Source: Escherichia phage vB_EcoS_Uz-1. From it: 64,000 nucleotides of DNA. Both the position numbers and the translations under genes were made by a program. Location: the sequence record OP312987.1; one strand, written 5' to 3'. Positions 269 through 48,633 of the stretch are shown one piece after another; the stretch's first letter is position 1; every line of letters begins with the position of its first letter. A model generated the notes under the pieces. It did no database searches and was not told the origin of the DNA. It worked only from the letters and a program-made list of their open reading frames with translations.

Positions 269-469
269 GATGATAGCTCCAATAGTTGATGATAGGACGA
301 CATGTCCATAACATGCGGAGCATGTGTAACGTGTAAGGTGGGGTAGGGTAGTGGCTACAGGGTCAACATACCGGGGGGGCTAGTTGAGTGTAAGGGTGTA
401 GCCCCTGCCACACCACTACAGCCATACATAGCTATCACAATTTTGGTATGCAAAAATAATATAGCTATC

Positions 470-7515: not shown

Positions 7516-7520
7516 ATGGA

Positions 7521-8435: not shown

Positions 8436-8483
8436 ACAGACTGCCTTCGGGGCAGTTCCTTATAGAAAAACAATGAGGTTTAT

Positions 8484-10598: not shown

Positions 10599-10603
10599 TT
10601 AAA

Positions 10604-10628
10604 ACTAAGGCCCAAACTGGGCCTTTTC
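10604..10628. terminator. bidirectional intrinsic terminator between convergent genes
   Basis: Hairpin GGCCCAAACTGGGCC with T-rich flanks on both strands, between the stop of 8484..10598 (+) and the stop of 10629..11282 (-). Confidence 0.6.
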
Positions 10629-11282: not shown

Positions 11283-11379
11283 TATGTCTGGATGTACTCC
11301 ATCATACTAAGTATTATCTAAGAGTCATCTTATGATACGACCCTATTGGGGTTTCTAACTTTACAACTACGGTAATATT

Positions 11380-19779: not shown

Positions 19780-20916
19780 ATGGGCTTATTCAGTGGGAAG
19801 ACCAAAGTATACGTAGCATCCTCTGTCTATAACATGGCAGGGGATATACATAAGCGTCCAAACTATATGAAGACTGTAGTCATCGGTAAGATTGTTGCTG
19901 ATACAGGATTCACTATGGCAGATACTATCTCTGATAGTTATCTGAATGGACCGGGTATTCGTATGCGACTGTTCTCCAGCTGGAGTAAGAACCACTATGA
20001 CTCAGAAGTTGGTATGGCAGGAGCTTCATTAGGTGTGCTGGCAAAGATTGACCCTACTGTTATAGAGGGTCAAATTACCCCACCTGCTGGAGAATCAGTC
20101 TATGTTCAGGCAGCAGAGATTGGCTTTGCTGACTTTGAGCAATGGTGTGACCAGTATCTTTATGAGAATGCTCCAAGTCGAATCATGGAACGATTCGACA
20201 TAGACATTGATGAAGATACCAATGAAATTACTATGACCTCCCTTGATGGAGGTTCTACCATTACATTCACACCTACTAACTTTGAACCAGGTGCTTTATA
20301 TCTCTATGCTGATTACTCATTCTATAAGTCCCCGGCTACCAATCCACCGGTAGTAGGACCGACTACTGTCTATGATGATGAAGATGACTTACCGTCTACT
20401 TTGTTGTGGACTACCATCTCAAGTGATACGACAGCTAATACAACCAATCTTACTAAGACTATACAGACCCATTCTGTTTACTCTGATGGTAGGCCGGATG
20501 AAGACAGTACTGTTACTGAACCAAGTGTGGATAACTGGAACTCTTATGTTAAGGTTTACCGTAGAGGATTCACTGAAAAGCCTGATGACGTAACTGTAGT
20601 TGTATCTGACAGAGTAATGACTCATACAAAGTTTGGTGAGGTTCAATCCAGTACTACTGTAACTACCAATGTTGTTAATTTAGGTGGTGGTGTTACTCGC
20701 ACTGACACAATCACCACAACTACAGAGACACTGGTTCGTAAGTACTCATCCCAGACTACTCGTACTGATACTGAGATGACTGCTGTTGGTACACCTAAGA
20801 TGCTTATCTATAAGCAGAACTCTGGCAACGTTGCACTTGATTCCCTGTTTGAGACTGAAGCTACTGATAATCGATTCTACCATTTATTCCAATCAGGAAT
20901 GATAAACAATGGGTAG
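19780..20916 (+). CDS. hypothetical virion protein
   Basis: 378-aa ORF, Thr-rich C-terminal half; the next ORF frame is open across its 3' end. Confidence 0.6.
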   Translation: MGLFSGKTKVYVASSVYNMAGDIHKRPNYMKTVVIGKIVADTGFTMADTISDSYLNGPGIRMRLFSSWSKNHYDSEVGMAGASLGVLAKIDPTVIEGQITPPAGESVYVQAAEIGFADFEQWCDQYLYENAPSRIMERFDIDIDEDTNEITMTSLDGGSTITFTPTNFEPGALYLYADYSFYKSPATNPPVVGPTTVYDDEDDLPSTLLWTTISSDTTANTTNLTKTIQTHSVYSDGRPDEDSTVTEPSVDNWNSYVKVYRRGFTEKPDDVTVVVSDRVMTHTKFGEVQSSTTVTTNVVNLGGGVTRTDTITTTTETLVRKYSSQTTRTDTEMTAVGTPKMLIYKQNSGNVALDSLFETEATDNRFYHLFQSGMINNG

Positions 20917-20987
20917 AGAATGACCCAATCTATCCTCACTGTAAGAAGGCACTCTATAAAGCTACTGGTGGTAAGCTCAATAAAGTA

Positions 20988-22433
20988 GTGACGGAGCTTA
21001 AGAAGAATGACGACATAGGTGATATTCAATACATCTATGGTACATTTGGTGTATCTCTTAATACTCCAGAAGATACGGCTAAGGAATACATCTACCGTTT
21101 CTTTCAGATGGCTACTGAAGCATTCCCACCTGACCCAACTTACCCTACATTGGAAGCAGTGATTGCAGGTTATCAGGCAGCAAATGATGCAGTCGATGCA
21201 TACGTAGAATGGTGGAACAGGCAGGAAGGTCAGATTGTTGGAACACCTCCATCTCTTCCAGAATACCCTGTTATACCTAAGCGAGAGTTTAGGATACATA
21301 GTAATAAGCAGTATAAGTACGACATGACCATTGGTTGGAACTACGTGTCTGAAACTACCCATTCCGGTGAAGCATGGGCTGGTGCTAAGCAAGGACAACT
21401 TCGAGCCAGATATGCAGGAGATATAACTCTTACCCGTAAGAACATACGTACTGCTAGTACCTACTGCTATGCTAACAAACTAGAAGTTACCACTACGTTT
21501 TATTCTATGCAGGAATACGAGTTACTTTGGCAGGATGGTAATGACACTTACCGTAAACTTAGAGTACTGGGTCTAAATCACAACAATAGGGTATATAAGA
21601 ATAAATCAGTAAGTATTGATGTTGCCGAAGCAATGGGAGATGCAGAGGAGAGTGGGTTCATTATCCCACTACACACTAATATTTACCGTTCAATGTCACT
21701 GGTTCGTAGTACACAACTGTCTACTGCCTGTTCCTACTTAGTGATGAACTCATACAAGAAAGTTAAGCAGAAATGGTATCAAACCTCTGCTTTTAAGATT
21801 GTGGTCGTTGTAGTTGCTGTCGTTGTATCTGTATTCACTATGGGTACGGGTGGTGCAGGTATACTTGGGGCATATGGTGCAGTTGGTGCATCTCTGGGTT
21901 TTGTTGGATTAGCTGCTGTAATAGTTGGTGCTGTAGCAAACGCCATAGCTGCAATGATTCTGGTATCCATTATTACTAAAGTATCTACTTCACTGTTCGG
22001 TGATAAGCTAGGTTTTATCATTGCTGCTATTGCCTCAATGGTAGCCATGAACGTTGGTACTGCTTTGTCTACTGGTACATCCTTATCCTCCCTAGCTGGT
22101 GAAATGATGAATGCTCAAAACATCATGCAACTTACCAGTTCGGTAGGTAATGGTATTAGTCAGTATATTAATGCATCCACGGCTGCTACTATTCAGAAAG
22201 CAGAGAATGTAATGCAGCAGTACAATACTGATATGATGGCAATCAATAAGCAGTATGAAGAAATGTTTGGTACTGCTGGGCAGGGTGTAATTGACCCTAT
22301 GCAATTTGTGTCAATGGAGTCGTTGGATTCTTTCCTCTCACGTACTCTTATGACTGGTTCGGATATAGCTGACATGTCTTTAAACATGGTTGGCAGCTAC
22401 TCTGATATGACTCTTAATACAGACCTTGTTTAA
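20988..22433 (+). CDS. virion protein with Gly/Ala-rich multi-TM segment
   Basis: 481 aa; ORF track start is GTG and the frame is open upstream to 20871 with no ATG; central ~110 aa hydrophobic Gly/Ala/Val-rich region. Confidence 0.55.
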   Translation: MTELKKNDDIGDIQYIYGTFGVSLNTPEDTAKEYIYRFFQMATEAFPPDPTYPTLEAVIAGYQAANDAVDAYVEWWNRQEGQIVGTPPSLPEYPVIPKREFRIHSNKQYKYDMTIGWNYVSETTHSGEAWAGAKQGQLRARYAGDITLTRKNIRTASTYCYANKLEVTTTFYSMQEYELLWQDGNDTYRKLRVLGLNHNNRVYKNKSVSIDVAEAMGDAEESGFIIPLHTNIYRSMSLVRSTQLSTACSYLVMNSYKKVKQKWYQTSAFKIVVVVVAVVVSVFTMGTGGAGILGAYGAVGASLGFVGLAAVIVGAVANAIAAMILVSIITKVSTSLFGDKLGFIIAAIASMVAMNVGTALSTGTSLSSLAGEMMNAQNIMQLTSSVGNGISQYINASTAATIQKAENVMQQYNTDMMAINKQYEEMFGTAGQGVIDPMQFVSMESLDSFLSRTLMTGSDIADMSLNMVGSYSDMTLNTDLV

Positions 22434-22890
22434 CAGGAGAATCCCCATGGATTTGTCATTCTTAACAGGCAACCAAACCCCACAGCCAGCTGCTATGTCT
22501 TGGATGTCTAATAACAATCAGAACTTTAATACCCCAGCTATGAACTACAATCCGGGTGCAGCTATTGGTATGAATGCAGGTACAGGATTAACTACCCCTA
22601 CCTCTTTCTTATCTGGTTCAGCTAATCAGTTGGGTATGAACGTACCTACCTTCCAGCTAGGACTTGGTGCACTTGGTTCATTAGCCAATATCTATAGTGG
22701 TTTCCAAGCTAATAAGTTAGCCAAAGACCAGTTGAACTTTACTAAGAGTGTTACTAACACTAACCTGAATAACCAGATTAAGTCTTATAACACTGCACTG
22801 GAAGATCGTGCTCGTAGCCGTGCTACAGCAGAGAACCGTGACCAGTCTACTGCTGATGCTTATATTGCAGCTAATAAACTAACTCGTTAA
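22426..22890 (+). CDS. hypothetical virion protein
   Basis: 154-aa ORF overlapping the upstream gene end. Confidence 0.5.
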   Translation: MFNRRIPMDLSFLTGNQTPQPAAMSWMSNNNQNFNTPAMNYNPGAAIGMNAGTGLTTPTSFLSGSANQLGMNVPTFQLGLGALGSLANIYSGFQANKLAKDQLNFTKSVTNTNLNNQIKSYNTALEDRARSRATAENRDQSTADAYIAANKLTR

Positions 22891-22902: not shown

Positions 22903-23769
22903 ATGGCTCAGATAACCTGGCGTAATGTTGATGCACCTAACTTCTCTGGAGTTGGTGACAGCATTCGCACATTTGGCAACATGATTGGTAACGCCACCTC
23001 CGGCTTAAGTGATGCACTGGGTAATTTCCAGAACGCTGCCAAGCAGGAGGCTGGTAATGCCGTCATGATGAATGCTATGCAGTACCAAGACCCAACTGAG
23101 TATCGTAATGCATTAGCATCTGGTGCACTGTTTCAGGGGGTTGACCCTTCATTGGTAAACCAGCGTACTCTCCAGAATCTGGATGAGCGAGCAGGTACTC
23201 TTCTGTCTCAGCAAGGTCAGCAGGGGATCAATGACTACAATGCTTATCGTTTTGGTCGTTTACAGAATACTGACTCTGCATTAGATAATGCTTCCCCAGC
23301 TATTCGTTTACTGTCTGAGGCTTATCAGTCTGGTGACCAGAATCGTATTAATGCTGCATTAGGTCAGACCCGTGAGGCATTATCTGCATTACCTGCTGAC
23401 CAACAACTGGATATGTTGAGTCGTCTACAAGGACAAGGTGGTCAGGCTATTAACCAAGCACAGAATCGTTTTGATTTGGGTGTGGCTCAACGTAATGATG
23501 CGGATAGTCAGGCAGCTATGGGTGTAATGTCACAGATTACCCGTGGTTCTGAGAACCTAATGATGCTCGTTTGTTGGCAGAGGCGTATAGTAAAAACCTG
23601 TCCCCTGTTGCACAGGCACGTTTACAGGAAATGCTTGCTCGTGCATACCGGTGTTTATGGTAATAATGTTGGTGCTACGTCTGCTCCGGGTACTGCTGGT
23701 ACTCGTCAGGGTTCCCCTTATGATGTTACTTACCAATTTGCTGGTACATCTACCCTATTACTCAAATGA
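22903..23769 (+). CDS. hypothetical virion protein
   Basis: 288-aa ORF with AGGAAA SD; Gln/Asn/Ala-rich; the 3' part has an alternative protein-like frame between 23570 and 23660. Confidence 0.55.
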   Translation: MAQITWRNVDAPNFSGVGDSIRTFGNMIGNATSGLSDALGNFQNAAKQEAGNAVMMNAMQYQDPTEYRNALASGALFQGVDPSLVNQRTLQNLDERAGTLLSQQGQQGINDYNAYRFGRLQNTDSALDNASPAIRLLSEAYQSGDQNRINAALGQTREALSALPADQQLDMLSRLQGQGGQAINQAQNRFDLGVAQRNDADSQAAMGVMSQITRGSENLMMLVCWQRRIVKTCPLLHRHVYRKCLLVHTGVYGNNVGATSAPGTAGTRQGSPYDVTYQFAGTSTLLLK

Positions 23770-24029
23770 GTATTGGTGATGTAATTAAACACCAGGATGG
23801 TATGAAGACGAACCAAGGTGCTTCACCTGTTGGTGCATTCCAAATTAACCAAGCTACTCTGAAAGACTTCGCTCCTAAAGTTCTTGGTTCAGATTGGCAA
23901 AGCCAGCCTCTTTCTCCTGAGAACCAGGATAAGATTGGTAAGGCTATCTTTGAGGCCCGTAAGAATGGCAACCTTAAAGATACCTGGGCTGCACTTCCTA
24001 ACTCTACCCAGGTGCTTATAAGGATATGA
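23766..24029 (+). CDS. hypothetical protein
   Basis: 87-aa ORF, ATGA start-stop overlap with neighbours on both sides. Confidence 0.45.
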   Translation: MSIGDVIKHQDGMKTNQGASPVGAFQINQATLKDFAPKVLGSDWQSQPLSPENQDKIGKAIFEARKNGNLKDTWAALPNSTQVLIRI

Positions 24030-24862
24030 CTTGGGAACAGATTAAACCTGTTATTGCTCAAGCCGAGGTGGGAGCTGACCCACTCGCTATGGTTCAGAAT
24101 AATCAAGGTAATCAGGCAGTATCTACTCTGGCTCAGGGTATGATTGGTACACGTTCTATGCAGGATAACACCGGTAGTCTTAACACTGACTTCCTTGGTA
24201 CTGTCACTGATAATACCCCAGTAGGTGAGATTGCTAACCGTTTGTTGGAAGGTGACTTTAAAGGTGCTGACCGTAACTGGGTACTGAACCGACTGAATGA
24301 TATTTCTCAACGTGGGAATATGTCACCAGCTATGGCTGCTGCTGTTATGCAACGTGCACAGACCGGTGTTCCAGAAGGTTATATTAGTCGTGCTATTGAT
24401 GCAGTTAACCCATTCATTACCAATGAAGCTGGTAATGGTATGCGTCTTAATGACCGTCTGGTAGATCAGTTAATTGAGGGTGTACAACGTGGTGAACCAC
24501 TGGAAGGTAGTGTGCGTAATCTTGGACGTGCTCAAGCTATGCAGAATATTCAGGCAGCACAGACTGCTTATGATGCTGCTGTAGCTGCACTGACAAATAC
24601 CCAGAACAAGATTAACACTGGACAAACTGGACTTACTGCACTGTTACCTGCACGTCAGGAAGCTGTTACTAAAGCTGCTGCAATGCTTCAAGCTGCCCAA
24701 GCTCAAGTACAGGCTGACCCAGCTAACCTGGCTCCAAGAGGTTTTCAGTCTCAGGCTAGTGTGGACAGGGCACGAGCCAAGGAAGATGAAGAACGTGCTG
24801 CACGATACTTACGTCAGGCACAAGGTTTGCCTGAGTATATGCAACCAAGACAAAATCGGTAA
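24026..24862 (+). CDS. hypothetical virion protein
   Basis: 278-aa ORF, ATGA overlap with upstream gene, followed by a strong terminator. Confidence 0.55.
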   Translation: MTWEQIKPVIAQAEVGADPLAMVQNNQGNQAVSTLAQGMIGTRSMQDNTGSLNTDFLGTVTDNTPVGEIANRLLEGDFKGADRNWVLNRLNDISQRGNMSPAMAAAVMQRAQTGVPEGYISRAIDAVNPFITNEAGNGMRLNDRLVDQLIEGVQRGEPLEGSVRNLGRAQAMQNIQAAQTAYDAAVAALTNTQNKINTGQTGLTALLPARQEAVTKAAAMLQAAQAQVQADPANLAPRGFQSQASVDRARAKEDEERAARYLRQAQGLPEYMQPRQNR

Positions 24863-24871
24863 TACTAATAA

Positions 24872-24894
24872 AAGCCCTTCGGGGCTTTTTTCTT
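24872..24894 (+). terminator. intrinsic terminator
   Basis: AAGCCC-TTCG-GGGCTT hairpin followed by TTTTTT. Confidence 0.8.
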
Positions 24895-24955
24895 AACAGG
24901 CTTACTGTAGAGTAAGCTTCCTATATACGATATAAGTTTGAACAGGAAACATGCT

Positions 24956-27900
24956 ATGTCAACATTTGACCGTCTGGCAGGTTTCGCAGACAGCATCACT
25001 AATGCTAAGCAAGTCGATGTCTCTACTGCAACCTCCCAGAAGCAAGCTGCACAAGGGCAAAGCCCTTTCCAATTAACCCCAGAGAATGCTTACAATCTCC
25101 AAACAGGTCGTGTAGGTAATCTTGGAATCGGTGCATTCGAACCAGGTTCACTTCAGGCAGATTTCACTCAAGCCTCCCCATTAGAAATTCTTAATAAATA
25201 CGGTAATGAGCAAGGTCTACAGATTCTTAATAGCCGAGCTAATGCTGCTGATGCTGTACGTCAGGACTTATCTAAACAACGTACTAACGCAGAAGCATTT
25301 GGCGATACTCTTTCTGGTGTTGGTCTTGGTGTTGCTAATACCCTTGGGGGCATTGCTGCTCTTGGTACAGGTCTGGTCAATGATAATGCCGGGGCATCCA
25401 TTGCTTCTGGGATGGATTGGCTGAATGAAGGTGTACATAATCTACAGTCTGATGCACTGAATGCTACCCGTAAGGTTGTTCAGAATCAGAACCAGATTTC
25501 TGCACAAAAGAACCAGAAGCTCTATAAGCAAGACATTAAAAATGGGGAGAGCAATTTAGTTGCCTCCTTGTCTCGTATTGGTCGTGACGCTTTTGATTCT
25601 GTTGCTAATACACTCGATAATGGTATGTCTGCTACTGACGGGTTAAGTGAGGGTGTTGGTTCCCTCTTTACTGGTGGTCCACTCATCCGTGGTGTATCTG
25701 CACTTGGTAAAGTAATGGTAGGTGGTAATAAAGCTGTTAAAGGCATTACCCTAGCTGCTGAGTTAGGTTCACGTCCTGCACAGGTTGCATTGTCTGCTGG
25801 TCGTGTTGCTGCACCTGCTATTGCAATTGGTGGTATGGAAGCAGGTGGTGCATACCAACAGACTGCTTCTGAAATCATGAAGATGCCCATCAATGAATTG
25901 GCAAGTAAGTCTCCTGTTTATCAACAACATATTGCTGATGGTTTATCTCCTGATGAAGCACGTCGTCAGACTGCATCTGAGACAGGTATCACTGCTGCTG
26001 GCTTAACTGCTCCAGTTGCTGCTGCTACCGGTCCACTGGTATCTCGCTTTGAACTTAACCCACTTAAGGTAGGTTCACTGGCTGGTGCTGGCTCTAATAT
26101 GCTGCGTGAAACTGTAGAAGAAGGTATTCAGTCTGGTACAAGTCAGTTTGCACAGAACAAGGCAATTCAGGGTAATGTAGATGCTAAGCGTGATTTGCTT
26201 AAAGGTGTCGGTGAGCAAGCAGGTCTTGGTGCACTTTATGGCTTCGGTAGTGCTGGTGTTGCTCAGGCTCCAGGTGCAACTGTTAAAGCTGTTGGTGCTT
26301 CTGCTGGGCCTGCTTTACGTACTACTCTGGCAGGTGCTTCTCTGGTTGGTAAGGCATTAGCAAAAGTAGCCTCTCCTCTTACTAACATCCTGGTTCAACG
26401 TGGGGAAGAAGTTGCTAAGCGCAATGAGCAAGCATCCCCTGTAGCTGATGCTACGGTTAATGCTGCTGCACAGGAAGCTGCTTCTCAGGCAGAACAAGCA
26501 CAGGCAACTGTACAGGAAGCAGTAGATGCAATGGACATCTCTCCAGAAGAGAAGGCTGCTGCTACCCAGTATGCTGCTGACTTAACTCAGGCAATGAAGT
26601 TTGACCCTGTAGAATTGGAACAAGCTAACCCAGTAATCCGTGAAGCTGTTTCTGGTTCCACTAACCGTGTAGAAGCTATTCAGAAAATGGCTGACTTGGT
26701 TAATACTGCTGAAGACCCTAACGTTCAAATGGAAGCTGCAATCCAGATGTATGACAATATCATGTCTATGGATAGCTTCATTAATCGTGACCCGGGTGCT
26801 CTGGCTAATCTGGAACAGGGATCTCCTGCTGCTACAATCGTAGACCAGTTCTCCGGCCTGATGGCTAACGTACAGAATACCCCTAAAGTACTTCGTGCAT
26901 TCCGTGCCATCCATTCCATGATTCAGGAACAGGCTGAAGCAGGTAAGCTGAAGGCTACTGAAGAAGCTAATCAAGCCCAAGCAAACAACATTGCTATGGC
27001 TGCCGATGTATCTCCAGAAGTACTGGATGCAGATTCAGTGAACATGGTTCTGAAACATGCAAGTGAAGGTAAGATTACACTGGGGAATCGTCAACGTGCT
27101 GCCCTGCAATCTGCTGCTGCCTTGTTACAGGGTGCACGAGAGTTCGACGCTAAAGCAGAAGAACTAGGCTTACGTCCTCAGGACATTGTTAGTAAACAGA
27201 TTAAAACCGACGAGTCTCGTTCTAATGAAGGACAGTACTCTGCGTTGCAACATGCGAAACGCATTCGTTCTGCGTATAACTCTGGTAACTTCGATTTGGC
27301 CTCCGCTTATCTGAGCGACTTTATGAAGTTCGCCCAGCACATGCAGAATAAGGTCGGAGCGTTGAATGAGCATCTGATTTCGGGGAATGCGGATAAGAAT
27401 AAGTCTGTCCATTATCAGGCTCTCTCGCCTTCCCGTGAATGGGTACGTAGTCGTACTGGTCTTGGTGTCAATCCGTATGATACCAAGTCGGTTAAGTTTG
27501 CCCAGCAAGTAGGACTGGAGGCCAAGACCGTAGCTGATATTGCTAACGCACTTGCTACGGCTTACCCGGAGCTTAATGTTTCTCATGTGAAAGTTACCCC
27601 ATTGGATTCACGTCTGGACAAGCCTGCTGCCCAGGTAGTTAAAGAGTTCCGTCAAGGTGGTCTTGATGCCACTCAGTCTCAACAGACTAATGAACCAGTG
27701 AATCAGGTTGATGAAACTCCTGCACCTGTGCAAGAGGCCACTACTACTGTACAGCCTAAAGCTAAACCAGTGGTAGAAAATAAGACTGTTCCTGTTAAGG
27801 AGACTAGTTCAAAAGCAGAAGAAGTCTCTACTACCGAATCCGAAAGGGATGCTTATGTGAAAGAAAATACTATTTCACAGGACATCCTCAATAAGAGTGG

Positions 27901-30900
27901 TGATCGTAGAGAGAGTCCTTGGCTCTTTGCTGATGGTACTGTTGTTGGTTCTAACGGTGATCACATTAGCCTGTCCGATGTATTTGGTCACGATGGTTAT
28001 CGTGATATGTCTCTGGACACTGGTGCTGTACGCTCCACTTTCTACAAAGGTAGTGAGCAACCATTTGTATCTCTGCAATTGTTTGATAATCAGAAGTTGA
28101 CTGCTAAACAGTTTGATACTGTTAAGTCCTTTGTTGATGCTAACAATGCACTGATTCAAGTAGGTGTAGATACTTCTGGTCGTAATACCAATAACGTTGA
28201 GAAGGTAGAGGTATCACTGGCTCAACTGAAAGCAGACTATACTGTTGGTGGTAAACCTTTGTCTGAGATGGAAACAGTGTTCCCTGTTTATAACAATGAC
28301 AAGACACCGAACCAGTTCCTTAAAGCATTTACCCTACCAGAAGAACCTAAGTCTCGTACCATTGGCTCTGAATCTCCTTTGACTGATGTTAAGAAAGCAC
28401 TGTCTTCTGCTGCTCGCTTTGAAGCATTCACTCAAAAAGAAAATAACGCTCTCACAAGTGATGTGATTAAGCGTTATCAGGACTTAATGGACTTTGGTGA
28501 AACCCTGAAGACTACCCTGTCTGACCGTCTGACTAAGTTCCTTGCTAACAAGAATGTCGGTAAACGCTTTGCAGAAGGTACTGAGGCTAACCGTTGGGTA
28601 GGTGGTAAGTTACTTAACATCGTAGAGAAAGATGGGGATACCTTTAAGTTTAATGACCAGTTGTTAGAGACTGCTGTACTTGCTGGTCTGCAATGGCGAT
28701 TGACTGCTACACAGAATGCTGCCGTTAAAGATATGAAAGACGTAGCTGCTATTACTGGTGTAGAAGCATCTCTGTTACCTGAAGGTATTCTGGCTGACTT
28801 CGAGAATGCTCAGACCCTGGTTGAAGCTACTAACTCACTGGCTCAAAAGATTGAATCTTATTGGGGTCTGAATCGTAATCCTAATGCACCACTGGGTTAT
28901 ACCAAAGGTATCCCAATGGCAATGGCTACGGAGATTCTGTCTTCTCTCATTGAGATGGGTGAAGTTAAAGAATCTATGCTTGATGTGTCTGAGATTGACC
29001 CAGATTCCAATAAGACTGTTGGTCTGTATACCATTGAGAAGCTGGATGACAATGATGCCATTAATAAATTCCCTACTGCTATTGAGGAAGCTGTCCTCTT
29101 AGAACCAGAAGAGAAAATGTACTTCGGTGACGACATTCCTTCCGTGGCTCAAACTCAGTTACGTAACCCGGCTGTTAAGAATACCCCTGAGCAGAAAGCT
29201 GCACTGAAAGCCGAACAGGCTACCGAGTTCCGTGTACACATGCCGATGGTTAACTTCTATGAAGCATTGGGACGTGACAACATTCTGGAACTGATGGGTG
29301 CTGGTACTCTTAACCCAGAACTACTGAACGTGAACACTGCTAAATCTCTGGAAGGTAAAAACCTGTCCGTATCCATGGCATATGATTCTCTGTTTGGTGT
29401 AATCAGCCAGATACGGGAACAAGAGAATGGACTGGATACACCTATCCATTACGGTTACAACATGACCCGTGTAGGTCGTATGCAGATGCTTGGTAAGAAC
29501 AACCCACAATCCAGTAAACTGGTTCGTGAAGCAATCTTACCGACTTTCTCTACTATCGACTTGAGTAATGAAAACAGCCAAGCGTTCTCTGACTTCCAGT
29601 TAGGACTGGCTCAGGCATTAGGCATCAAGGTACATAACATGTCCCGTGAAGCTATGTCTGAAAAGTTGACCAAGGCTCTGGAAGGTAATCTGAAACCTGC
29701 TGTTGATATGATGGTTGAGTTTGATAAGTCTGGGCACTTACCTGCTGATGCAGTAGATATTCTGAAGACCTCCTGGGTGGATGATAAATCCTTCGTAGCT
29801 CTCATGGCTCTGATGGAATATGCCCGTTACCTGAACAGTGATGACCGTGCCAACTTTACTACTCCACTTTACGTTGAAGCTGATGGAGTAACCAACGGCC
29901 CGATTAACGCAATGGTATTAATGACTGGTGGTAAGTTCACCCCAGACTGGATTAAGAATACTGCCAAAGGTGGCTTGTTCTTCGGCAAAGCTGGTAAGAC
30001 TATGAACGAACATCGTTCACAGGATGACAGTGTTGACCTGTATGAAGCATCTACCAATGGTCTGCAACAAGCCCTGAATGAGTTACGTACTACTTACCGT
30101 AACAACGTTCCGGTTATGAGCCAGATGAATCATCTCCAGAAGTTAATGGACCTGTTCATCAAAGACTTTAACCTGAACGAAGACGGTACTCTGGACCTGA
30201 AACGTGGTATCGCTAAAAACCCACTGACCATTACCATCTATGGCTCTGGTGCACGTGGTATTGCTGGCAAGATGGTTAGTGCAATTACTGACACCATCTA
30301 TGAACGCTTCAGTGACGTTCTGCAAGCACGGGCTGCTGACCCTAGCATTTCCCCGGCTATGGCAATGTTTGGTAAGGAGGCTGCGTCTGAGGCTGATGCT
30401 CAGGCTATGCTGGATACTTTCCTTACTTCTATGGAAGCACTGACTGGTAATGTTCCAGTTATGCGTAAAGGTGAATTGTCTATTCAGCAAGTAGAGGGTG
30501 CTCTGACTGGTAAGTTAGACCCTCAGAAATTTACCGTATCCGGTAACGCCCTGAAGAACTTACAGGAGAACATGCTCCATCTGTTCGTTGAACCAATGCG
30601 TACTGGTATCCGTAATACTGTTGGTGAAGGTCTGATGCACTCTACCGAGAACTTGCAGAAGGCTACCCAGATTCAGTCTCTGGTATTGCAGGATATGTTC
30701 CAACAAGCAGTACAGGCTAAGCTGGCAGAAAAAGAAAAAGACCCAACCTGGAAGAAGGGTGATTTCTTAACCCAGAAAGAACTGAATGAAATCCAGGAAT
30801 CATTGTCTCCATTGGCTCCAATGATTGAGACTGGTTCGCAGACTTTCTACATTGCTGGTAGTGAGAATACTGATGTTGCTAACCAAGTGCTGGCTACCAA

Positions 30901-41693: not shown

Positions 41694-43586
41694 TTATTTG
41701 CCAGCGTAGCGTTTAGCCACGGTGACCATTACGGTTGCATTCAATTCATCATCAGGTAATGGATTAGCCAGCTTCTTATTGAATGAGTGGACGGCTTGCT
41801 GTACTTGAGCAAAGTCCCAACCACTGTCAACCAATGCCAGTGCGTACTTAATCATTTGATTATTACGATTACCGGAGGCAATACGACTAGCGAACCAACG
41901 CTCCAGATTATCCAACGACTGTACTTCCTTCATCTGGTTCTGGAACTGCTCGTTCTTACTAGTACGAGGAATAAAGTCACGCACATCTAACAGATTTGCA
42001 TCAAGGTTGTAATGATAAGAACCAGTCTCACAGGACATCCACTTCTTGGCTCGTTGGTTAGCTGACTCATCTGTTTCGAATGGTAGCCAAGCCATAACGT
42101 TATTCATGAACTCTTTGTATTCCTCTGTATCGAGGTGTAACTCATAGTTCATTGGAATAATCAGACGGAAGCGGTTCTCTTCATCAGTATGACGCTTGGT
42201 GGTATAGGTCATGAACTTATATTCCTTCATCAGTTCATGGCACGTATGCAGTGGTACTCCACCATCACAGTCAATAACAATCATGTTAAATCCTGGGATA
42301 ACGTTCTCTTCAGAACGATGCCCATTCTTCATGTGATGGTTTACCCAGTGCATACCGGGAGCTTGGGTTAATACATGCAACTGGTCGAACGGTACGCGTT
42401 CACCAATGTAGTCATAAGCAAAGCTATCACTATATGCCACTATCATCTCATTGATGTCAGTCTCTTTAAGAGTTTCACCACGGAAGAACTCAATACCCTC
42501 ATTGAAGGTCTTCTTAATGATGATGTGCTGTTTGTAACCCCATGCAGTAGCAAGAGTCATCATTTCATTACGAGCTGCATTACCACTCTTATAGAATGGT
42601 AAAGACTCCAGCAAGTCAGCATGAGTTACTTCTTTACCTACGGAGGCAATGTACTTAGCCAGCTTCACATAGGCTTTTTCACGATTAAGGATTGTCTGGA
42701 ATGCTGCCCCAGATTCCTCTACAAGCAGAATTGCTTGTTTAAGGTGAGCCATCTCAATAAATGAACTCTGGTCAACAAATGCCAGTGCACCTGCCAGCTT
42801 AAGAGCTTTGAAGTAACGGTGGGAGATTTCAGCTTTACGAATCTCTTCGTGGTCAGCCATAGCTTCTGCTTGTTTCTCACAATCAATTTTGTAAGTAATC
42901 AGGGCAATACCTACAGCATCTTCCACAATCATCTTAAAGCCAAACAAGTTTGGGTCAGCCAGACTATGGAAGTGGTTAGCCCATTTACCAAGAGACTGTA
43001 CGTTATCCTGTTTAATCAGGTTACGGTAGATTTCTTCTGGGGTTAGTGTTGCATGTGCTCGTTTGTCTAAATGCCCGATGGCAAACAAACAACGACGTGC
43101 ATAACCTGTATCAAGGAAGTCATAGAACTGGTCCTCAGTCTGACCACCATCCAGCAGTTTACTCGGAGTACCAAACAACAGCAGGTTAGTTGGAGTCTTA
43201 CCGTCCAGTTCTTCACCACGAACGCTTTCAGCAGTATTCTTGGTCAGCTTCTGCTTAACCTTACCCTGGTCATATAGCTCCAGAAACAGAGTTAATACAT
43301 CAGAGTTAGCCAACAGATTTGAACCAATTTCATCAATTTGAAGATTGATTGAACCACATCCAGCCATTAACAGTTTATGACGTAGCTGTTTAACTGCTGG
43401 TGGAGTACCTGAGTCAAACGTAAACGGATATGCTCCGGCACGTTTATATTCTGCTTCAACTTTATCAAACTCTTCCTGCTGGTCAGTACCTTGACGTGCA
43501 GAGCGTTCGTTAGCAATCTTCCATAGACGGTCATTTGCAATGACGGGCATGGTGTCTTCCATAAAACGTTTACGGAAGCCAGTCAT
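41694..43586 (-). CDS. DNA primase-like protein (AEP-type motif in C-terminal half)
   Basis: 630 aa; Walker B-like LQIDEIGS in the N-terminal part, hhhDxD-like NMIVIDCDGG in the C-terminal part; start overlaps upstream ORF stop (ATGA). Confidence 0.5.
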   Translation of the reverse strand: MTGFRKRFMEDTMPVIANDRLWKIANERSARQGTDQQEEFDKVEAEYKRAGAYPFTFDSGTPPAVKQLRHKLLMAGCGSINLQIDEIGSNLLANSDVLTLFLELYDQGKVKQKLTKNTAESVRGEELDGKTPTNLLLFGTPSKLLDGGQTEDQFYDFLDTGYARRCLFAIGHLDKRAHATLTPEEIYRNLIKQDNVQSLGKWANHFHSLADPNLFGFKMIVEDAVGIALITYKIDCEKQAEAMADHEEIRKAEISHRYFKALKLAGALAFVDQSSFIEMAHLKQAILLVEESGAAFQTILNREKAYVKLAKYIASVGKEVTHADLLESLPFYKSGNAARNEMMTLATAWGYKQHIIIKKTFNEGIEFFRGETLKETDINEMIVAYSDSFAYDYIGERVPFDQLHVLTQAPGMHWVNHHMKNGHRSEENVIPGFNMIVIDCDGGVPLHTCHELMKEYKFMTYTTKRHTDEENRFRLIIPMNYELHLDTEEYKEFMNNVMAWLPFETDESANQRAKKWMSCETGSYHYNLDANLLDVRDFIPRTSKNEQFQNQMKEVQSLDNLERWFASRIASGNRNNQMIKYALALVDSGWDFAQVQQAVHSFNKKLANPLPDDELNATVMVTVAKRYAGK

Positions 43587-43903
43587 GAACCCGTCTTCGA
43601 TGATATTACTGAGTGACCTTTACCGAAACCAGATGTAGCCAACGCTATAGCGTAGATGTTTACCGGCAGGTCACCACGGTCTTTAGTTACGATGGTTGCA
43701 CCCATGCAGGATGCCATTTTAGCCAAGAAGTAGGCTACTTCGACACGGAAGAATCCCCGGTCATTGTTCTGGGTTTTATTGCAGAGCACATCTACGATTT
43801 CTTCAATCGCTGGATGGTGCACTACTCCGGTAAGGTCAATACTCATGATGGAAAATATCTCTCTCTTTGTTTGCAAATGGTCGCGACAGGGCAGTATAAA
43901 CAA
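43583..43903 (-). CDS. small hypothetical protein, possibly the N-terminal segment of the primase gene
   Basis: 106-aa ORF ending ATSGFGKGHS..., ATGA overlap with the primase ORF. Confidence 0.4.
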   Translation of the reverse strand: MFILPCRDHLQTKREIFSIMSIDLTGVVHHPAIEEIVDVLCNKTQNNDRGFFRVEVAYFLAKMASCMGATIVTKDRGDLPVNIYAIALATSGFGKGHSVISSKTGS

Positions 43904-44823
43904 CGCTTAACCTGCCCCTCCACGACCTTGATAGCACCCTTGCCACCTTTTTCAGCCATGAAGATACGGGCAGATGCCATATCGTCAAAGTTTTTGGTAC
44001 TTCTGGCTCCAGGCACATCTACCTTAGAAGCATCAGAGAAGTATTTGAATTGTGGCTCTGTTCGCCACAACTCCTCGTCAGTACATTCAGGAATTTCCTC
44101 TTCAGGAGCATCCCAGTACTTTTCGATGAGGTGAATCTTCTCTTCCACCCAACGTTCAGTCTTCTCGACAGATAGCAGCGGAATATCCTTATGCATAATA
44201 CGATTAGCAGGATAGTTCGGGTTGCTATTAGCCATGTGTTTCATGAAGTCAGTGAAGATGTAGTTAATACGGATTACATCCTCCGTAATGATGTCGTTAT
44301 GAATCCAACGGTACAAGCTGCCTTGCATCTTGTGTTCATCATCACGGGAACCGGCAACCCAGGAATAGGTTGAGGTAGACTTAAAGTCTTGCAACAGACC
44401 TTCCGTTACGATGTCGAACTTACCACCGATAGTCCAACCCTTAACTACCCTGGTTCCACGTTGTTCAATGTAGATTGGGATAAGGTCTGGGTTAGCATCA
44501 AAGTCTGCTTTGGTTGGGTTAATGACTACTGCATCAATGACTCGCTGAGGATAGCCTAGTTTCTTCAATGCAGTCTTATGCCCCAGCTTCCAGGCTTTCT
44601 CAATAGAATCATGCAAGCCAGTACCCATTGATGTGGAGACGAAATCCATAACATCAATGGATTGTTCACTGAGATCTACGCGATGCTTCATGACGATTTG
44701 CTTAATGGGTTTAAGCAATGTAGTAGCAGACAAGTACTTAGGATTGTCTACATAATCATACTCGTCATGTAATAGCCATACAGCTAGTGCAAGACTAACG
44801 TCGTGTTTGTTGGTAAGTTTCAT
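43843..44823 (-). CDS. PD-(D/E)XK nuclease, Cas4-like exonuclease with C-terminal Cys cluster
   Basis: GKFDIVTEG...QDFK nuclease-like motifs and C-terminal C-x2-C-x5-C (KRCLYCPVATICK); 326 aa. Confidence 0.5.
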   Translation of the reverse strand: MKLTNKHDVSLALAVWLLHDEYDYVDNPKYLSATTLLKPIKQIVMKHRVDLSEQSIDVMDFVSTSMGTGLHDSIEKAWKLGHKTALKKLGYPQRVIDAVVINPTKADFDANPDLIPIYIEQRGTRVVKGWTIGGKFDIVTEGLLQDFKSTSTYSWVAGSRDDEHKMQGSLYRWIHNDIITEDVIRINYIFTDFMKHMANSNPNYPANRIMHKDIPLLSVEKTERWVEEKIHLIEKYWDAPEEEIPECTDEELWRTEPQFKYFSDASKVDVPGARSTKNFDDMASARIFMAEKGGKGAIKVVEGQVKRCLYCPVATICKQRERYFPS

Positions 44824-45317
44824 AACAGTCCCAATTGCTTATTAGTTTTAGCAAACTCACCATAATGAGTTATAGCAGCTTCATCATAGAGAACAGCAGC
44901 TTCTCTTGGGTCATCTGTAAAACCTAATGTAATTGGTTTACTGTTAACCCAAATAGTTGCTCTGTATTTACCTAAATTCTTTGAAAAGGATACCCCCTTA
45001 AATCCAGATGTGTTTGTTTTAGATAAAACAGCACTCTGGTTATTCTGCTTGTGGGTCGCTTCTCTGAGGTTATCTATCCAGTTGTGATGGCGAATATTGT
45101 CCTTATGGTCAATCCTATCCGTAGGCCATACACCGTGCACATAGAACCATGCAAGGATATGCCCATAGTACAACACACTATCTACACGGAGTTGAACGTA
45201 ACCACTCTTCATTAGGTAACCAGATACCTTTCCGGTATTCCTACGAGTAAAAATCCCGGAAATAGGGTCATAACTAACAAGCTGTAAAAGCCTGTCATGG
45301 GCAATCCTCTGTTTCAT
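44820..45317 (-). CDS. HNH homing endonuclease with AP2-like DNA-binding domain
   Basis: HNH motif IDHKDNIRHHNWIDNLREATHKQN followed by GFKGVSF...YRATIW...LGFTDDPREAAVLYDEAA; 165 aa; flanked by a duplicated fragment of the downstream gene. Confidence 0.85.
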   Translation of the reverse strand: MKQRIAHDRLLQLVSYDPISGIFTRRNTGKVSGYLMKSGYVQLRVDSVLYYGHILAWFYVHGVWPTDRIDHKDNIRHHNWIDNLREATHKQNNQSAVLSKTNTSGFKGVSFSKNLGKYRATIWVNSKPITLGFTDDPREAAVLYDEAAITHYGEFAKTNKQLGLL

Positions 45318-45324
45318 AATTAGT

Positions 45325-45392
45325 TACTCGTCATGCAATAGCCATACAGCCAGGGCCAGTGATACATCATGGTTGTTGGTTATCTTCATTAG
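45325..45392 (-). repeat. duplicated 5' fragment of the exonuclease gene (direct repeat with 44757..44823)
   Basis: About 77% identical over 64 nt to the first 64 nt of the exonuclease gene, first 34 nt nearly identical; encodes MKITNNHDVSLALAVWLLHDE-stop versus MKLTNKHDVSLALAVWLLHDEYDY... Confidence 0.7.
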
Positions 45393-45865
45393 TAAGTAAT
45401 CCTGTATCTGTGAACCCAGTTCCACTTAATTTCACTTAGCTGATTGAAGTTATACGAGTAAATTTCATCTCGTTCATCTTTATAAACAATCTCAATGAAT
45501 GAAAATTCTTTAGTGAAGTGAGGTTTACCATTGTTTGTATGGTGCCAATAACTACCAACGGTATTTACATTCGTAGCAGGATCCGGAAATAACTCACTAG
45601 CTAACTTCTCTTTAGCGAGAATACGATTAGCGTAATGAACCAGCTTCTCAGCATCATACACCGAAGAGTTTCCTGGTTTACCATTACCCATACGGGCAGC
45701 AGCATTTCGCCATAGAGCCTTAAAGGCACAACCTTCATCGAAGGTCATGCCCAGTGCCTGGATAATATCCTCACACTCTGCTTGGTATGGCTCTTGCTCT
45801 TTCCGTTGGGGGTTCTTAACTGGTACTACATACCAGTTATTCAATCCACCGGAGAGCTTAGTCAT
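45389..45865 (-). CDS. hypothetical protein
   Basis: 158-aa ORF; its stop overlaps the ATG of the duplicated exonuclease fragment (TAATG). Confidence 0.55.
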   Translation of the reverse strand: MTKLSGGLNNWYVVPVKNPQRKEQEPYQAECEDIIQALGMTFDEGCAFKALWRNAAARMGNGKPGNSSVYDAEKLVHYANRILAKEKLASELFPDPATNVNTVGSYWHHTNNGKPHFTKEFSFIEIVYKDERDEIYSYNFNQLSEIKWNWVHRYRITY

Positions 45866-46170
45866 TATTCCCCCTTGGGAATCATGTTTGCCTGGAACTC
45901 TGGTTCAGACATCAGACCCAGGTTGTTAATGGACAGATAAACAATGTCTTTCAAATCAACCGAAGTGTCGAAACGCTGGTCCAGACTAATTTTAAGAGAG
46001 TGATTGGCACGGGCCAAATCTTTATAGGTCACATGAGGCTCGTCAGTGAGCAGCATTGTGTTCATAGTAAGCAGGGAGCCATCATCAGCTTTGGGAAGCT
46101 GGAAGATTACCTGTGCTGCTACCATCCAATGATATTTTCTGACAACGGTTTCTTTAGTACTTTTAGTCAT
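45865..46170 (-). CDS. hypothetical protein
   Basis: 101-aa ORF directly downstream of the DNA polymerase gene. Confidence 0.5.
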   Translation of the reverse strand: MTKSTKETVVRKYHWMVAAQVIFQLPKADDGSLLTMNTMLLTDEPHVTYKDLARANHSLKISLDQRFDTSVDLKDIVYLSINNLGLMSEPEFQANMIPKGE

Positions 46171-46661
46171 GCGAATGCCTTTTGAATTATTTGATGAACT
46201 TCATCTGGGGTAGCGTGATTTGGAATTTCAATCTCGTTAGCCCACGTTGGATAAAACAAGGATAGTTCCCCACCCAAACCAACTTCTGGATGAGCAATAT
46301 CAGGATGGTCTTGCCAGTTAACGGCTTCAACCAAGTGCTTGTTCGTATACTGTAAGGTATCCATGTTGTCACGGATCATGAAGTATTGGGCATCATGAAT
46401 GTGAATACAAGGACGGATATCTAACCTGAACTCACTGGTTCTGACTTTACGCATAAACTCTGAGCCAGCACGGTTATTAAGTAGACACCAGCTTTGACCT
46501 AATGCATTACCAGCAGTTCTGCCTTCAGCTTCTGCTTCATACGGAGTCTTACATGTCCCACGTAATACCTGAGCCAGTAAAGGAGTACGCACTCTTAAAC
46601 CAAATGCAGCAGTTACATAACCAGTCTTAGCAGCTTCGTCTAGCTTAGCCTGAACCCACAA
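46167..46661 (-). CDS. DNA polymerase family A, C-terminal fragment
   Basis: ...GYVTAAFGLRVRTP ... AEGRTAGNALGQS ... IHIHDAQYF resemble the Pol I C-terminal region and motif C; frame is open upstream to about 46739. Confidence 0.8.
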   Translation of the reverse strand: MWVQAKLDEAAKTGYVTAAFGLRVRTPLLAQVLRGTCKTPYEAEAEGRTAGNALGQSWCLLNNRAGSEFMRKVRTSEFRLDIRPCIHIHDAQYFMIRDNMDTLQYTNKHLVEAVNWQDHPDIAHPEVGLGGELSLFYPTWANEIEIPNHATPDEVHQIIQKAFA

Positions 46662-46669
46662 ATCACTAA

Positions 46670-47122
46670 CTACATAGAGATCGTGATAACGTTTCTCCGT
46701 AGTTTTAGCCTTCTCTTCGGAGAAGCCACAGTTTTCATTAAGCCCATGTAAGTACCACCATAGGTAAGCAGGAAGGTTGGAGCCTTCGAGTCACTACGTA
46801 ATGATTTGTACTTATGCTGAATGGAATTAATGGATTCTACTGTGTCTTCTATGTCTGGCATCTGCTCACCAAAATAAGCATATGCACGGAGACTGTGACC
46901 ATCATAGCCATCGGTATATACCTTAAGCTTCTGCGGGTCTTTAGTAGTTAAAGCTGAGATACGGTCTTCAAGGCTTGCAAAGTCCAGTCCACAAAATATC
47001 CAACCTGGTGGTGCTTCGAAGCATTTCTTAATCTTCTTGGCGTATTTGGAACCACTGGGGATGGTCTGTAGATTAGGCTCGGACGCTGAGAGACGTCCTG
47101 ATACTGTGCCTCCAAATTGAGG
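46670..47122 (-). CDS. DNA polymerase family A, middle fragment (motifs A and B)
   Basis: Hand translation of a second frame: PQFGGTVSGRLSASEPNLQTIPS ... CGLDFASLEDRISA ... KAPTFLLTYGGTYMGL; the ORF track shows only its last 63 codons (46670..46861). Confidence 0.7.
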   Translation of the reverse strand, partial: PQFGGTVSGRLSASEPNLQTIPSGSKYAKKIKKCFEAPPGWIFCGLDFASLEDRISALTTKDPQKLKVYTDGYDGHSLRAYAYFGEQMPDIEDTVESINSIQHKYKSLRSDSKAPTFLLTYGGTYMGLMKTVASPKRRLKLRRNVITISM

Positions 47123-48633
47123 TTACCGAACAGGTAGTGCCATCCATCTGGTCCAGGTTGTGCATTACGGAAAGCTGGGATGAATGAAGTGATGATCTTA
47201 TCCACCAGCTTATAGTCGATAAGTGCATTGAGCAGTTCCTTAACATCTTCACTCTGCGTATGTGTACGCAGTGCTTTAATAGTGTCACCGTCAGTAGCAG
47301 GTTGCTTGCTCTTAGTAAGACCAAGAACCGGTAAGCCGATGTAGTCAAATAACAATTTCTGTAATTGTGGACCAGAGTTAGGATTAAACTCTATGTCACA
47401 ATCAGCCAACGTTACCTGCTTCTTCTTAAGCTTGGCATTCTTATCGTCTACCCATTCCTGACGAAGCATCAGGGTGAAGTTCTTCATGAGCTTAGACTCA
47501 CGAATAGTTTTCAGAGCCTGGTTCCTGTCAGTTTCCATTTCTTCAGCTACTTGGTTAACGGTTTCCATATTCATGGGCATACCGGTTAACTGCATCTGAA
47601 TAATGTCTTCGCAGGCTGGTTTAAAGATGTTGTTATAAACATCTAGTTGGTTATCAGCTACCAGGGTATCCCAGTGTTTCTCGTAGGTGTACCAGGTACA
47701 CAAACCATCAATAAGGTTGTATCGTAACAGTTGCTCATTAGGAATGAGACGAATGTCTTTAATATCATCCTGAGCATAGTTACCAGCATACTCCTGAGCC
47801 TGCTCTTTTAGACTAAGGTGATTACCAGCACAACTGTTAGTAGCTAAATAAGTAATTAATTTAGTACAGTCCCAGTTACGCAGCATGATGTCCATGCCAT
47901 GCAGTAAGCCTCCAGTATCAATCAGGTTATCCATGAATAACTGATAAATAAGTATGTACACATCATAACTAATGTTGTGATACATCTGCCGTTGGGTGTA
48001 CTTAATGAAGAACTCACGGAGAAGATTTCGAACAATATCATTACGATTGATTCTCCCATAAGGTGCTTCAGTAGCTCCCCTAATTGGCTCGTAATCCACA
48101 TTAAAGGCTATGCCCTGTGTCTTACTCCAACAGAACGTAATTGTTCCTATACCTGCGTTATAGTGCTTTAAACCGAATGCCTCGATGTCTATAGCCAGAG
48201 GCTTATTCATCTCAAGCAACTGGTCTAGCCAGGCTTTAATCTTTTCTGGAGTATCTGGATAGGCTTCAAACTCAATGATTCCCTGACCTGGTTCAGCATA
48301 CTGCCCACGTATGTGGTTTAGTAATGCATCCATACCCTGAGCAATTTTGGCTCTCACTACAGGTGGGTCATAAAAGACCTGTCTGTAACTAGGCGTATAG
48401 ATAACTTTCTGTTTACCCCATACTGAATCACAAACATAGCCGAGATTAGCCTCTGCTTTAGCCTCTTTAGTCAGTATTTTGAAGTAATCAGAATCGGTGC
48501 AGATAATGTACTGGGTCTCTGCATCATCCAGTACTTGCTGCAATTCCTGCTTTATGAACTCCTTAATCTCTCTTGCTGGGGTCTTCTTCTTGCCCGGAGC
48601 AGAGTGAAGTTCAATAAAGATGAAGTCTTCCAT
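46948..48633 (-). CDS. DNA polymerase family A, N-terminal fragment with 3'-5' exonuclease motifs
   Basis: LAIDIEAFGL (Exo I-like) and HNISYDVY (Exo II-like) in a 561-aa ORF; authentic sequence ends near 47100; a strong SD plus ATG at 48670 joins this frame if the T3 run at 48658-48660 is one base longer. Confidence 0.8.
   Translation of the reverse strand: MEDFIFIELHSAPGKKKTPAREIKEFIKQELQQVLDDAETQYIICTDSDYFKILTKEAKAEANLGYVCDSVWGKQKVIYTPSYRQVFYDPPVVRAKIAQGMDALLNHIRGQYAEPGQGIIEFEAYPDTPEKIKAWLDQLLEMNKPLAIDIEAFGLKHYNAGIGTITFCWSKTQGIAFNVDYEPIRGATEAPYGRINRNDIVRNLLREFFIKYTQRQMYHNISYDVYILIYQLFMDNLIDTGGLLHGMDIMLRNWDCTKLITYLATNSCAGNHLSLKEQAQEYAGNYAQDDIKDIRLIPNEQLLRYNLIDGLCTWYTYEKHWDTLVADNQLDVYNNIFKPACEDIIQMQLTGMPMNMETVNQVAEEMETDRNQALKTIRESKLMKNFTLMLRQEWVDDKNAKLKKKQVTLADCDIEFNPNSGPQLQKLLFDYIGLPVLGLTKSKQPATDGDTIKALRTHTQSEDVKELLNALIDYKLVDKIITSFIPAFRNAQPGPDGWHYLFGNLNLEAQYQDVSQRPSLIYRPSPVVPNTPRRLRNASKHHQVGYFVDWTLQALKTVSQL

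Follow-up and report, generated by a model that had tools for sequence, protein, structure and literature searches.

A gp50-family virion RNA polymerase gene in Escherichia phage vB_EcoS_Uz-1 and its N4-like genome context

Introduction

Among the closest known systems to the gene reported here is gp50 of phage N4, a virion RNA polymerase (vRNAP) of 3500 amino acids (aa). N4-like phages carry this giant enzyme in the virion and inject it, and early transcription begins with it. Our gene lies in Escherichia phage vB_EcoS_Uz-1 (sequence record OP312987.1), of which we analysed a stretch of 64,000 nucleotides (nt), hereafter called the window. In N4-like phages, gp52-gp51-gp50 form a conserved ejection operon (PMC13434306). 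The N-terminal domain (NTD) of N4 vRNAP is lipid-binding and related to injection (PMC13434306, PMC13492108), and the linker between the NTD and the polymerase (Pol) domain, residues 907-1006, is of low complexity (PMC13434306). The apo enzyme is autoinhibited by a plug (PMC13492108), while the C-terminal domain (CTD) is needed for encapsidation and autoinhibits the Pol domain (PMC13434306, PMC13492108). Promoter recognition involves Arg119 and Trp129, which read the -11 base (PMC13492108). The kinship of N4 vRNAP with T7-like RNA polymerases (RNAPs) has been established by genetics and structure (PMC13492108, introduction). At the level of the genome, nucleotide identities of at least 95% and at least 70% delimit species and genus, respectively, and the Schitoviridae share 17 core proteins, namely gp15, 16, 24, 25, 39, 42, 43, 44, 50, 52, 54, 56, 57, 59, 67, 68 and 69 (PMC7650795).

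An initial annotation of the window, made from its letters and open reading frames (ORFs), had proposed that one giant gene encodes a vRNAP with T7-like motifs and that the genome is N4-like. Coliphages of the G7C/Bp4 type have found use in phage-therapy studies of avian and uropathogenic E. coli. Here we compare the gene with N4 gp50 and its other relatives, and map the 2026 full-length N4 vRNAP structures residue by residue onto this orthologue. The main value of the work is a correct annotation, with the phage recognized as an N4-like coliphage of the G7C/Bp4 type.

Results

The vRNAP gene was found in the ORF list as a single frame of 3570 codons followed by a TAA stop (24956..35668, plus strand; 10.7 kb), and the peptides of motifs A, B and C that the initial annotation had quoted each occur in it once. 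The open frame itself spans 24938..35668 on the plus strand and has a TTG at its beginning. The ATG at 24956, and not the TTG at 24938, is supported by the sequence as the start of the gene, since a Shine-Dalgarno AGGA can be read 8 nt upstream of the ATG (24944..24947, plus strand) and the N-terminus MSTFDRLAGFADS aligns with residue 1 of N4 gp50. The GGAAAC context before this ATG also precedes the ATG of N4 gp50. Residues of the vRNAP protein are numbered from ATG 24956.

When we searched the protein against all PDB sequences using phmmer, it matched only chains of the N4 'virion RNA polymerase'. The full-length N4 gp50 chains determined by cryo-EM (11gp, 9pnq and 9pnr; 3500 aa) gave 4994 bits and were collinear with the query, residues 1-973 and 1118-3569 of which aligned with N4 residues 1-982 and 1028-3499, and the mini-vRNAP crystal chains 3q0a, 3c2p and 2po4 gave 1689-1693 bits. 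Chance cannot account for scores of this size. The vRNAP-specific Pfam set (PF21867, PF21624, PF21894 and PF21769, comprising vRNAP_dom_2, vRNAP_plug, N4_RNAP_helical and vRNAP_dom) matched with E-values from 1e-26 to 1e-101, all above the gathering cut-offs, and PHROG 2206, 'virion RNA polymerase', matched with 4121 bits over profile positions 5-3405 of 3406. We then translated N4 gp50 from the N4 RefSeq record (YP_950528.1) and aligned it with the vRNAP protein using MAFFT, which gave an overall identity of 66.6% from end to end. The size of 3570 aa and the collinear NTD-Pol-CTD arrangement agree with the gp50 family, whose members have ~3400-3600 aa. Every defining feature of the family that can be tested in a sequence was found, which confirms at this level that the gene is a gp50-family vRNAP, and nothing contradicts the assignment. 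The gene is already annotated in public records, so that its presence is real but ordinary and unsurprising.

The structural comparison revealed the same three domains as in N4, all read from the plus strand. The NTD (aa 1-905; 24956..27670) is 58% identical to N4 residues 1-997 and conserves a hydrophobic stretch rich in Gly and Ala at about aa 224-300. N4 Lys267 aligns to an Asn in the window protein, which has a Lys at the next position. The NTD is followed by linker 1, whose low-complexity part (aa 906-973; 27671..27874) is rich in Pro, Glu, Ser, Thr, Gln and Lys, is 65% disorder-promoting in composition, and corresponds to the N4 linker, residues 907-1006 (PMC13434306). The Pol, or mini-vRNAP, domain (aa 1118-2190; 28307..31525) shows 71% identity to N4 residues 998-2103 and contains the plug insertion at aa 1544-1625 (29585..29830; PF21624 vRNAP_plug, E 4.5e-26). 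Linker 2 is 8 aa shorter than that of N4, of which residues 2111-2118 are deleted. The CTD (aa 2191-3570; 31526..35665) was aligned with 9pnr and 11gp and is 69% identical to N4 residues 2104-3500. Searches of the NTD, linker and CTD against Pfam at E ≤ 1 gave sub-threshold noise only.

Within the Pol domain, motif A YVEADGVTNGPINAM (aa 1639-1653; 29870..29914) contains the catalytic Asp1643, which corresponds to Asp559 of N4, and motif B KRGIAKNPLTITIYGSG (aa 1749-1765; 30200..30250) contains Arg1750, Lys1754 and Tyr1762, corresponding to Arg666, Lys670 and Tyr678. Motif C, LKIFDGMN (aa 2031-2038; 31046..31069), provides the second catalytic residue, Asp2035, equivalent to Asp951 of N4. Asp1643, Lys1754, Tyr1762 and Asp2035 each lie within an 11-mer identical to that of N4, and the alignment shows that Arg666, Arg424, Arg119 and Trp129 of N4 are likewise kept. 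The counterpart of Arg424 is Arg1508 in the sequence TRVGR (29465..29479), where the 11-mer MTRVGRMQMLG is the same in N4. This TRVGR is the T/DxxGR motif of N4 vRNAP. The readers of the promoter -11 base are conserved as Arg1204 and Trp1214 (28565..28597). The spacings between the catalytic residues are 111 (Asp1643-Lys1754), 8 (Lys1754-Tyr1762) and 273 (Tyr1762-Asp2035), with 392 between the two aspartates, the same as in N4. The values of about 107, 10 and 390 given in the initial annotation were approximately right, except that 390 fits only the distance from Asp to Asp and not that from Tyr to Asp. Its expectation that the central ~1100 aa resemble N4 mini-vRNAP was borne out, as this part is 71% identical and keeps all the catalytic and promoter-reading residues that we checked.

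In a megablast search with the gene, 59 records covered at least 80% of it at 91-94% identity, and almost all of these come from Gamaleyavirus (G7C-like) phages of E. coli or Shigella. VTCCBPA_322 matched best, and the flanks of the gene behaved likewise. The RefSeq record of phage Bp4 (NC_024142.2) annotates orf31 as 'virion RNA polymerase; gp50' (YP_009113218.1) at 24956..35668, the same coordinates as in the window. When we compared the gene with that of Bp4, we counted 852 nt differences, 645 of which fall at the third codon position. The codon changes were synonymous in 622 cases and nonsynonymous in 157, and this pattern was seen in the NTD, the Pol domain (203 synonymous and 43 nonsynonymous changes) and the CTD. 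Judged from these changes, the gene is clearly under purifying selection and functional.

The same affiliation was obtained for the whole window. A tblastn search with the N4 proteins located 15 of the 17 core proteins, in N4 order; gp15 and gp16 (RNAPII) had no match in the window and lie in Bp4 at 65.5-67.8 kb, past the window edge. PHROG scans of the window ORFs identified the terminase, portal, major head protein, gp51, SSB, primase, DNA polymerase and helicase. The window runs in reverse orientation relative to the N4 record. Its late genes, on the plus strand, include the homologues of N4 gp69 (2743-3420) and gp68/TerL (3416-5002), both of which are numbered one higher in the Bp4 notes, and continue after TerL with portal, capsid, gp52, gp51 and gp50. 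On the minus strand lie gp49, gp48, tRNAs, SSB, primase, DNA polymerase, helicase and rII, a set that runs towards the vRNAP gene in convergent orientation. The N4-like genome that had been proposed from the gene order and a minus-strand replication module is thus upheld, and comparison of the window with the Schitoviridae sharpens the placement from the family to a genus. The ungapped nucleotide identity to Bp4 is 94.03% over 64,000 nt, above the 70% that delimits a genus, and the identity to PD38, PhAPEC5, ECBP1 and others is 91-94%. These sequence comparisons support an assignment of the phage to the Schitoviridae, subfamily Enquatrovirinae, genus Gamaleyavirus. For the species Gamaleyavirus Bp4, the value of 94.03% over the available 64 kb is just below 95%, and the placement is uncertain because 8.5 kb are missing and the sequence is possibly a reference-guided consensus.

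We then scanned the window for hairpins of the form GC-(three purines)-GC with a stem of at least 5 bp, of which there were 2, as against a mean of 0.33 in shuffled sequences. One of them, ACATGC-GGA-GCATGT at 311..325 (plus strand as template), is of the N4 P1 type and is bordered by acatgtccata and gtgtaacgtgta, which are almost the same as the flanks of N4 P1 (N4 90-102). The stem has 6 bp with a GGA loop in the window, compared with 5 bp and GAA in N4. The predicted transcription start is C307, placed by counting as in N4, with transcription leftward. In the early region of N4, hairpins with a 3-nt loop and a GC-GRA-GC top are located at 90-102 (before gp1), 557-573 (gp2) and 4546-4562 (gp15), and the N4 P2 hairpin, GAAGC-GGA-GCTTC, is indeed present at N4 559-571, just ahead of gp2. 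Bp4 has two copies of the P1-type hairpin (311-325 and 72483-72497), which belong to an exact terminal repeat of 411 bp. Since both repeat copies of Bp4 contain it, the hairpin of the window probably also lies in a terminal repeat of ~411 bp, and this placement would mean that the record starts at the physical end of the genome, in reverse N4 orientation. P2- and P3-like hairpins in Bp4 precede the gp2 and gp15 homologues at the N4-equivalent positions, beyond the window edge. Conservation of Arg1204 and Trp1214, together with a P1-type hairpin in the window, leads us to predict that the enzyme recognizes hairpin promoters. The second hairpin, GC-AAA-GC at 25053-25067 within the ORF, was rejected as a chance occurrence because its flanks are not N4-promoter-like.

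The vRNAP gene is the third in the order gp52-gp51-gp50, a position after gp52 and gp51 that it has in common with N4 gp50. The homologue of the ejection protein gp52 (22447..22890, plus strand) was found by tblastn with N4 gp52 (59% identity, E 5e-35). That of the ejection protein gp51 (22903..24862, plus strand) consists of three overlapping ORFs, 22903-23769, 23766-24029 and 24026-24862; positions 1-294 and 388-666 of PHROG 6126 map to separate gp51 ORFs, and the tblastn high-scoring segment pairs fall in three frames. Between gp51 and gp50, a terminator scan found a GC-rich hairpin with a T-run, AAAAGCCCTTCGGGGCTTTTTT (24870..24891, plus strand), which is terminator- or attenuator-like, folds as RNA with -11.1 kcal/mol (z -2.4), and is present as an identical 22-mer at the gp51/gp50 junction of N4. 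The role of this hairpin may be that of an attenuator, or it may be a sign that gp50 is expressed separately at the late stage. A conserved leader, GATATAAGTTTG...AGGAAAC, follows it. At the other end, a hairpin of the bidirectional intrinsic-terminator type (35673..35698, both strands) lies between the convergent vRNAP and gp49-like (DUF2829) genes, with folds of -17.8 and -18.9 kcal/mol (z about -4.4) and 0 of 200 shuffles as stable. A sigma-70 promoter scan of the gene region gave 7 sites compared with 17.8 in shuffles and is uninformative, since shuffled sequences yield more.

A notable difference from N4 is a 144-aa segment of linker 1 (aa 974-1117; 27875..28306, plus strand), which has no N4 counterpart. 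It was left unaligned to N4 by phmmer and appeared as insertions in the MAFFT alignment, and it places a segment of globular composition where N4 has ~45 aa of low-complexity linker. Hydrophobic residues make up 31% of it and 13 residues are aromatic, a composition equal to that of the Pol domain; in the N4 linker, hydrophobic residues amount to 16% and aromatics are absent. Synonymous and nonsynonymous codon changes in the segment number 39 and 8 against Bp4 and 29 and 7 against VTCCBPA_322, as compared with 5 and 7, and 3 and 4, in the adjoining low-complexity stretch (aa 906-973). When we used the segment as a tblastn query, matches were obtained in 28 Gamaleyavirus records only, at 89-96% identity. 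It had no match in Pfam (E ≤ 1), PHROGs (E ≤ 1) or PDB (E ≤ 10), a homologue search of a large protein collection returned only one 277-aa fragment, local tblastn gave no internal duplication or paralogue within the window, and no description of it was found in the searchable literature. An AlphaFold2 model of the segment from single-sequence input had a pLDDT of 45.8, too low for a structural reading. We infer that the segment is probably an extra folded module. That it folds autonomously, adding a 'bead' to a linker which in N4 is only a flexible low-complexity tether, is a tentative idea that we doubt more than we trust. Such a module could have a role of its own when the protein is ejected or anchored in the membrane, perhaps by spacing the NTD at the inner membrane from the polymerase in the cytoplasm or by mediating an interaction between them, and it offers a small lead for studies on the threading of a 390-kDa enzyme through a tail channel of ~35 Å. 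It is the only mildly new item of this analysis.

Several other loci of the window were recorded. The vRNAP gene contains seven ORFs of 106-138 aa in antisense, which were treated as chance occurrences since they have no PHROG match, and an Rfam scan of 24000-39000 found nothing inside the gene and only one tRNA. ARAGORN called three tRNAs on the minus strand, Ile(aat) at 37006-37084, Cys(aca) at 37785-37863 and Ala(cgc) at 38155-38226. Only Ile(aat) reached the Rfam gathering score, and the Bp4 record annotates Ile(aat) and Cys(aca). A34 anticodons are unusual, and the Ala(cgc) call may be spurious. An HNH endonuclease gene (44820-45317, minus strand) is located directly upstream of the gp42 exonuclease gene, and the first 21 codons of gp42 recur with 95% identity at 45327-45389, immediately upstream of the HNH gene; N4 has no HNH gene at that place. 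Together, the HNH gene and the partial gp42 copy (44820-45389) look like the footprint of a homing-endonuclease insertion. The tail fibre and tailspike genes (5713-10598) are 100% identical to those of Bp4 and 99.9% to those of PD38. In other Gamaleyaviruses, this region is replaced or only 34-60% covered, and UE-S5a has an endosialidase and a K5 lyase there. This variation is the usual swapping of host-range cassettes.

Discussion

Taken as a whole, we consider it nearly certain that the gene encodes the vRNAP of a Gamaleyavirus coliphage, which most likely works as its close orthologue in N4 does. On the side of the phage studied here, we observed the sequence, the domain architecture, the conservation of residues, the operon context, purifying selection and the presence of a P1-type hairpin; packaging, injection and early transcription independent of the host RNAP are expected from the identity of 66.6% to N4 gp50. 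The steps of the mechanism are transferred from N4 by orthology (PMC13434306, PMC13492108). Transcription of the gene would take place late, at the end of the gp52-gp51-gp50 ejection operon, and the capsid would take up a small number of the 3570-aa proteins via the CTD. At infection, the vRNAP is predicted to leave through the tail after gp52 and gp51, with its domains loosely linked like 'beads on a string', and the NTD may associate with the inner membrane. The plug, the motif-B loop and the CTD would hold the Pol domain in an inactive state, and activation of this domain presumably consists in binding a DNA hairpin, with a stem of 5-7 bp and a 3-nt purine loop, that is extruded from the supercoiled early promoters. 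Arg1204 and Trp1214 would read the central -11 base of this hairpin, and the early genes would then be transcribed with the catalytic Asp1643 and Asp2035 and with Lys1754 and Tyr1762 of motif B.

Here, we need to consider several observations that weigh against this explanation or against the sequence on which it is based. The genes for RNAPII, gp15 and gp16, as well as the P2 and P3 promoters, lie outside the 64-kb window. Over 64,000 nt the window aligns with Bp4 without a single indel, at 94.03% identity, and it shares with Bp4 the frameshifted gp51, gp53, DNA polymerase and primase. If real, a gp51 in three ORFs would compromise ejection, and the exact combination of alleles may be absent from any single phage.

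One way to account for such a pattern is that the record is a reference-guided consensus or composite built on Bp4 coordinates, in which case the gene-family member would be real while its exact allele would be a product of assembly. We regard this as a serious possibility, though on balance we lean somewhat against it. Besides the absence of indels, the ORF coordinates are identical to those of Bp4, and blocks of perfect identity, at 5902-11543 (5642 nt), 53267-55679 (2413 nt), 62503-64000 (1498 nt), 56116-57142 (1027 nt), 44774-45610 (837 nt) and 37465-38250 (786 nt), are set among regions of ~92% identity. The genes split as in Bp4 are gp51 (22903-24862), read as three ORFs, gp53 (19780-22433), DNA polymerase (46167-48633) and primase (41694-43840), read as two each, and further rIIA (53534-56099), gp25 (60062-61234) and gp24 (61720-62771). 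Five gaps of 1-2 nt break gp51 in both the window and Bp4, in runs of C or G (near 23555, 23649, 23753 and 24006), and look like errors of the sequencing type; in VTCCBPA_322, gp51 (1965 nt) and gp53 are intact single coding sequences. On the other hand, the substitutions are natural-looking, with 2105 transitions to 953 transversions and most changes at third codon positions, and they carry a phylogenetic signal, since of the 852 vRNAP sites at which the window departs from Bp4, 522 have the nucleotide of VTCCBPA_322. The ORF of the vRNAP is unbroken, and natural recombination also yields mosaic blocks. The rIIA block, 100% identical in Bp4, is common to 55 records at 92-94%, so that the Bp4-identical blocks are only partly unique to Bp4. 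Natural mosaicism with shared frame breaks may also be the source of the match to Bp4. The functional assignment of the gene as a vRNAP is the same whether the record is a consensus or a natural mosaic.

Another reading takes the protein as a T7-type (Autographiviridae-like) RNAP fused to unrelated domains, which would be unpackaged and would use double-stranded promoters. Its motifs A, B and C are indeed of the single-subunit (T7-like) type (PMC13492108), and to that extent the 'T7-like' of the initial annotation stands. By sequence similarity, it could not be shown. The PF00940 RNA_pol family gave no match at E ≤ 0.01, which leaves the protein outside the T7-like family as judged by sequence. 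When the Pol domain was searched against PDB by phmmer at E ≤ 10, only N4 vRNAP entries and one chance TatA match were returned, with no chain of T7, T3, SP6 or mitochondrial RNAP. The protein is collinear with gp50 across all three domains, it contains the N4-specific plug and the -11-base readers, and its genome context is schitoviral. The collinearity, the Pfam and PDB results and the genome context seen by tblastn refute a T7-type fusion, to which we give next to no credence, and the relationship to T7 RNAP is structural or at the level of motifs, by way of N4 (PMC13492108). Equally far-fetched is an inactivated, decaying copy that serves as a structural ejection protein without polymerase activity, a notion suggested by the apparent frameshifts in the neighbouring gp51 and gp53 and contradicted by the uninterrupted 10.7-kb ORF, the conservation of all the catalytic residues and purifying selection on every domain, with the 203 synonymous to 43 nonsynonymous changes of the Pol domain against Bp4.

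The gp50-family vRNAP of the window can finally be compared with the known systems. The vRNAP of Bp4 has the same length of 3570 aa and is 95.6% identical in protein and 92.0% in nucleotide sequence, with 157 aa substitutions and no indels, and that of VTCCBPA_322 (XFC51929.1), again of the same length, is 97.7% identical in protein and 93.8% in nucleotide sequence, with 81 aa substitutions and no indels. The substitutions relative to both phages spare all the catalytic and promoter-reading residues that we examined, and both vRNAPs share their gene neighbours and the 144-aa linker segment with the window. With N4 gp50 (3500 aa), the protein shares the tripartite NTD-Pol-CTD organization, the plug and the T/DxxGR motif, as well as catalytic residues at identical spacing and the equivalents of Arg119 and Trp129, and it is longer by 70 aa. 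With T7 RNAP and POLRMT (PF00940), it has in common the right-hand chemistry, the aspartates of motifs A and C and the Lys and Tyr of motif B. It is about four times larger than the T7-like RNAPs and, unlike these enzymes, which use duplex promoters, it would, by analogy with N4, be packaged in the virion, injected into the host and directed to single-stranded hairpin promoters.

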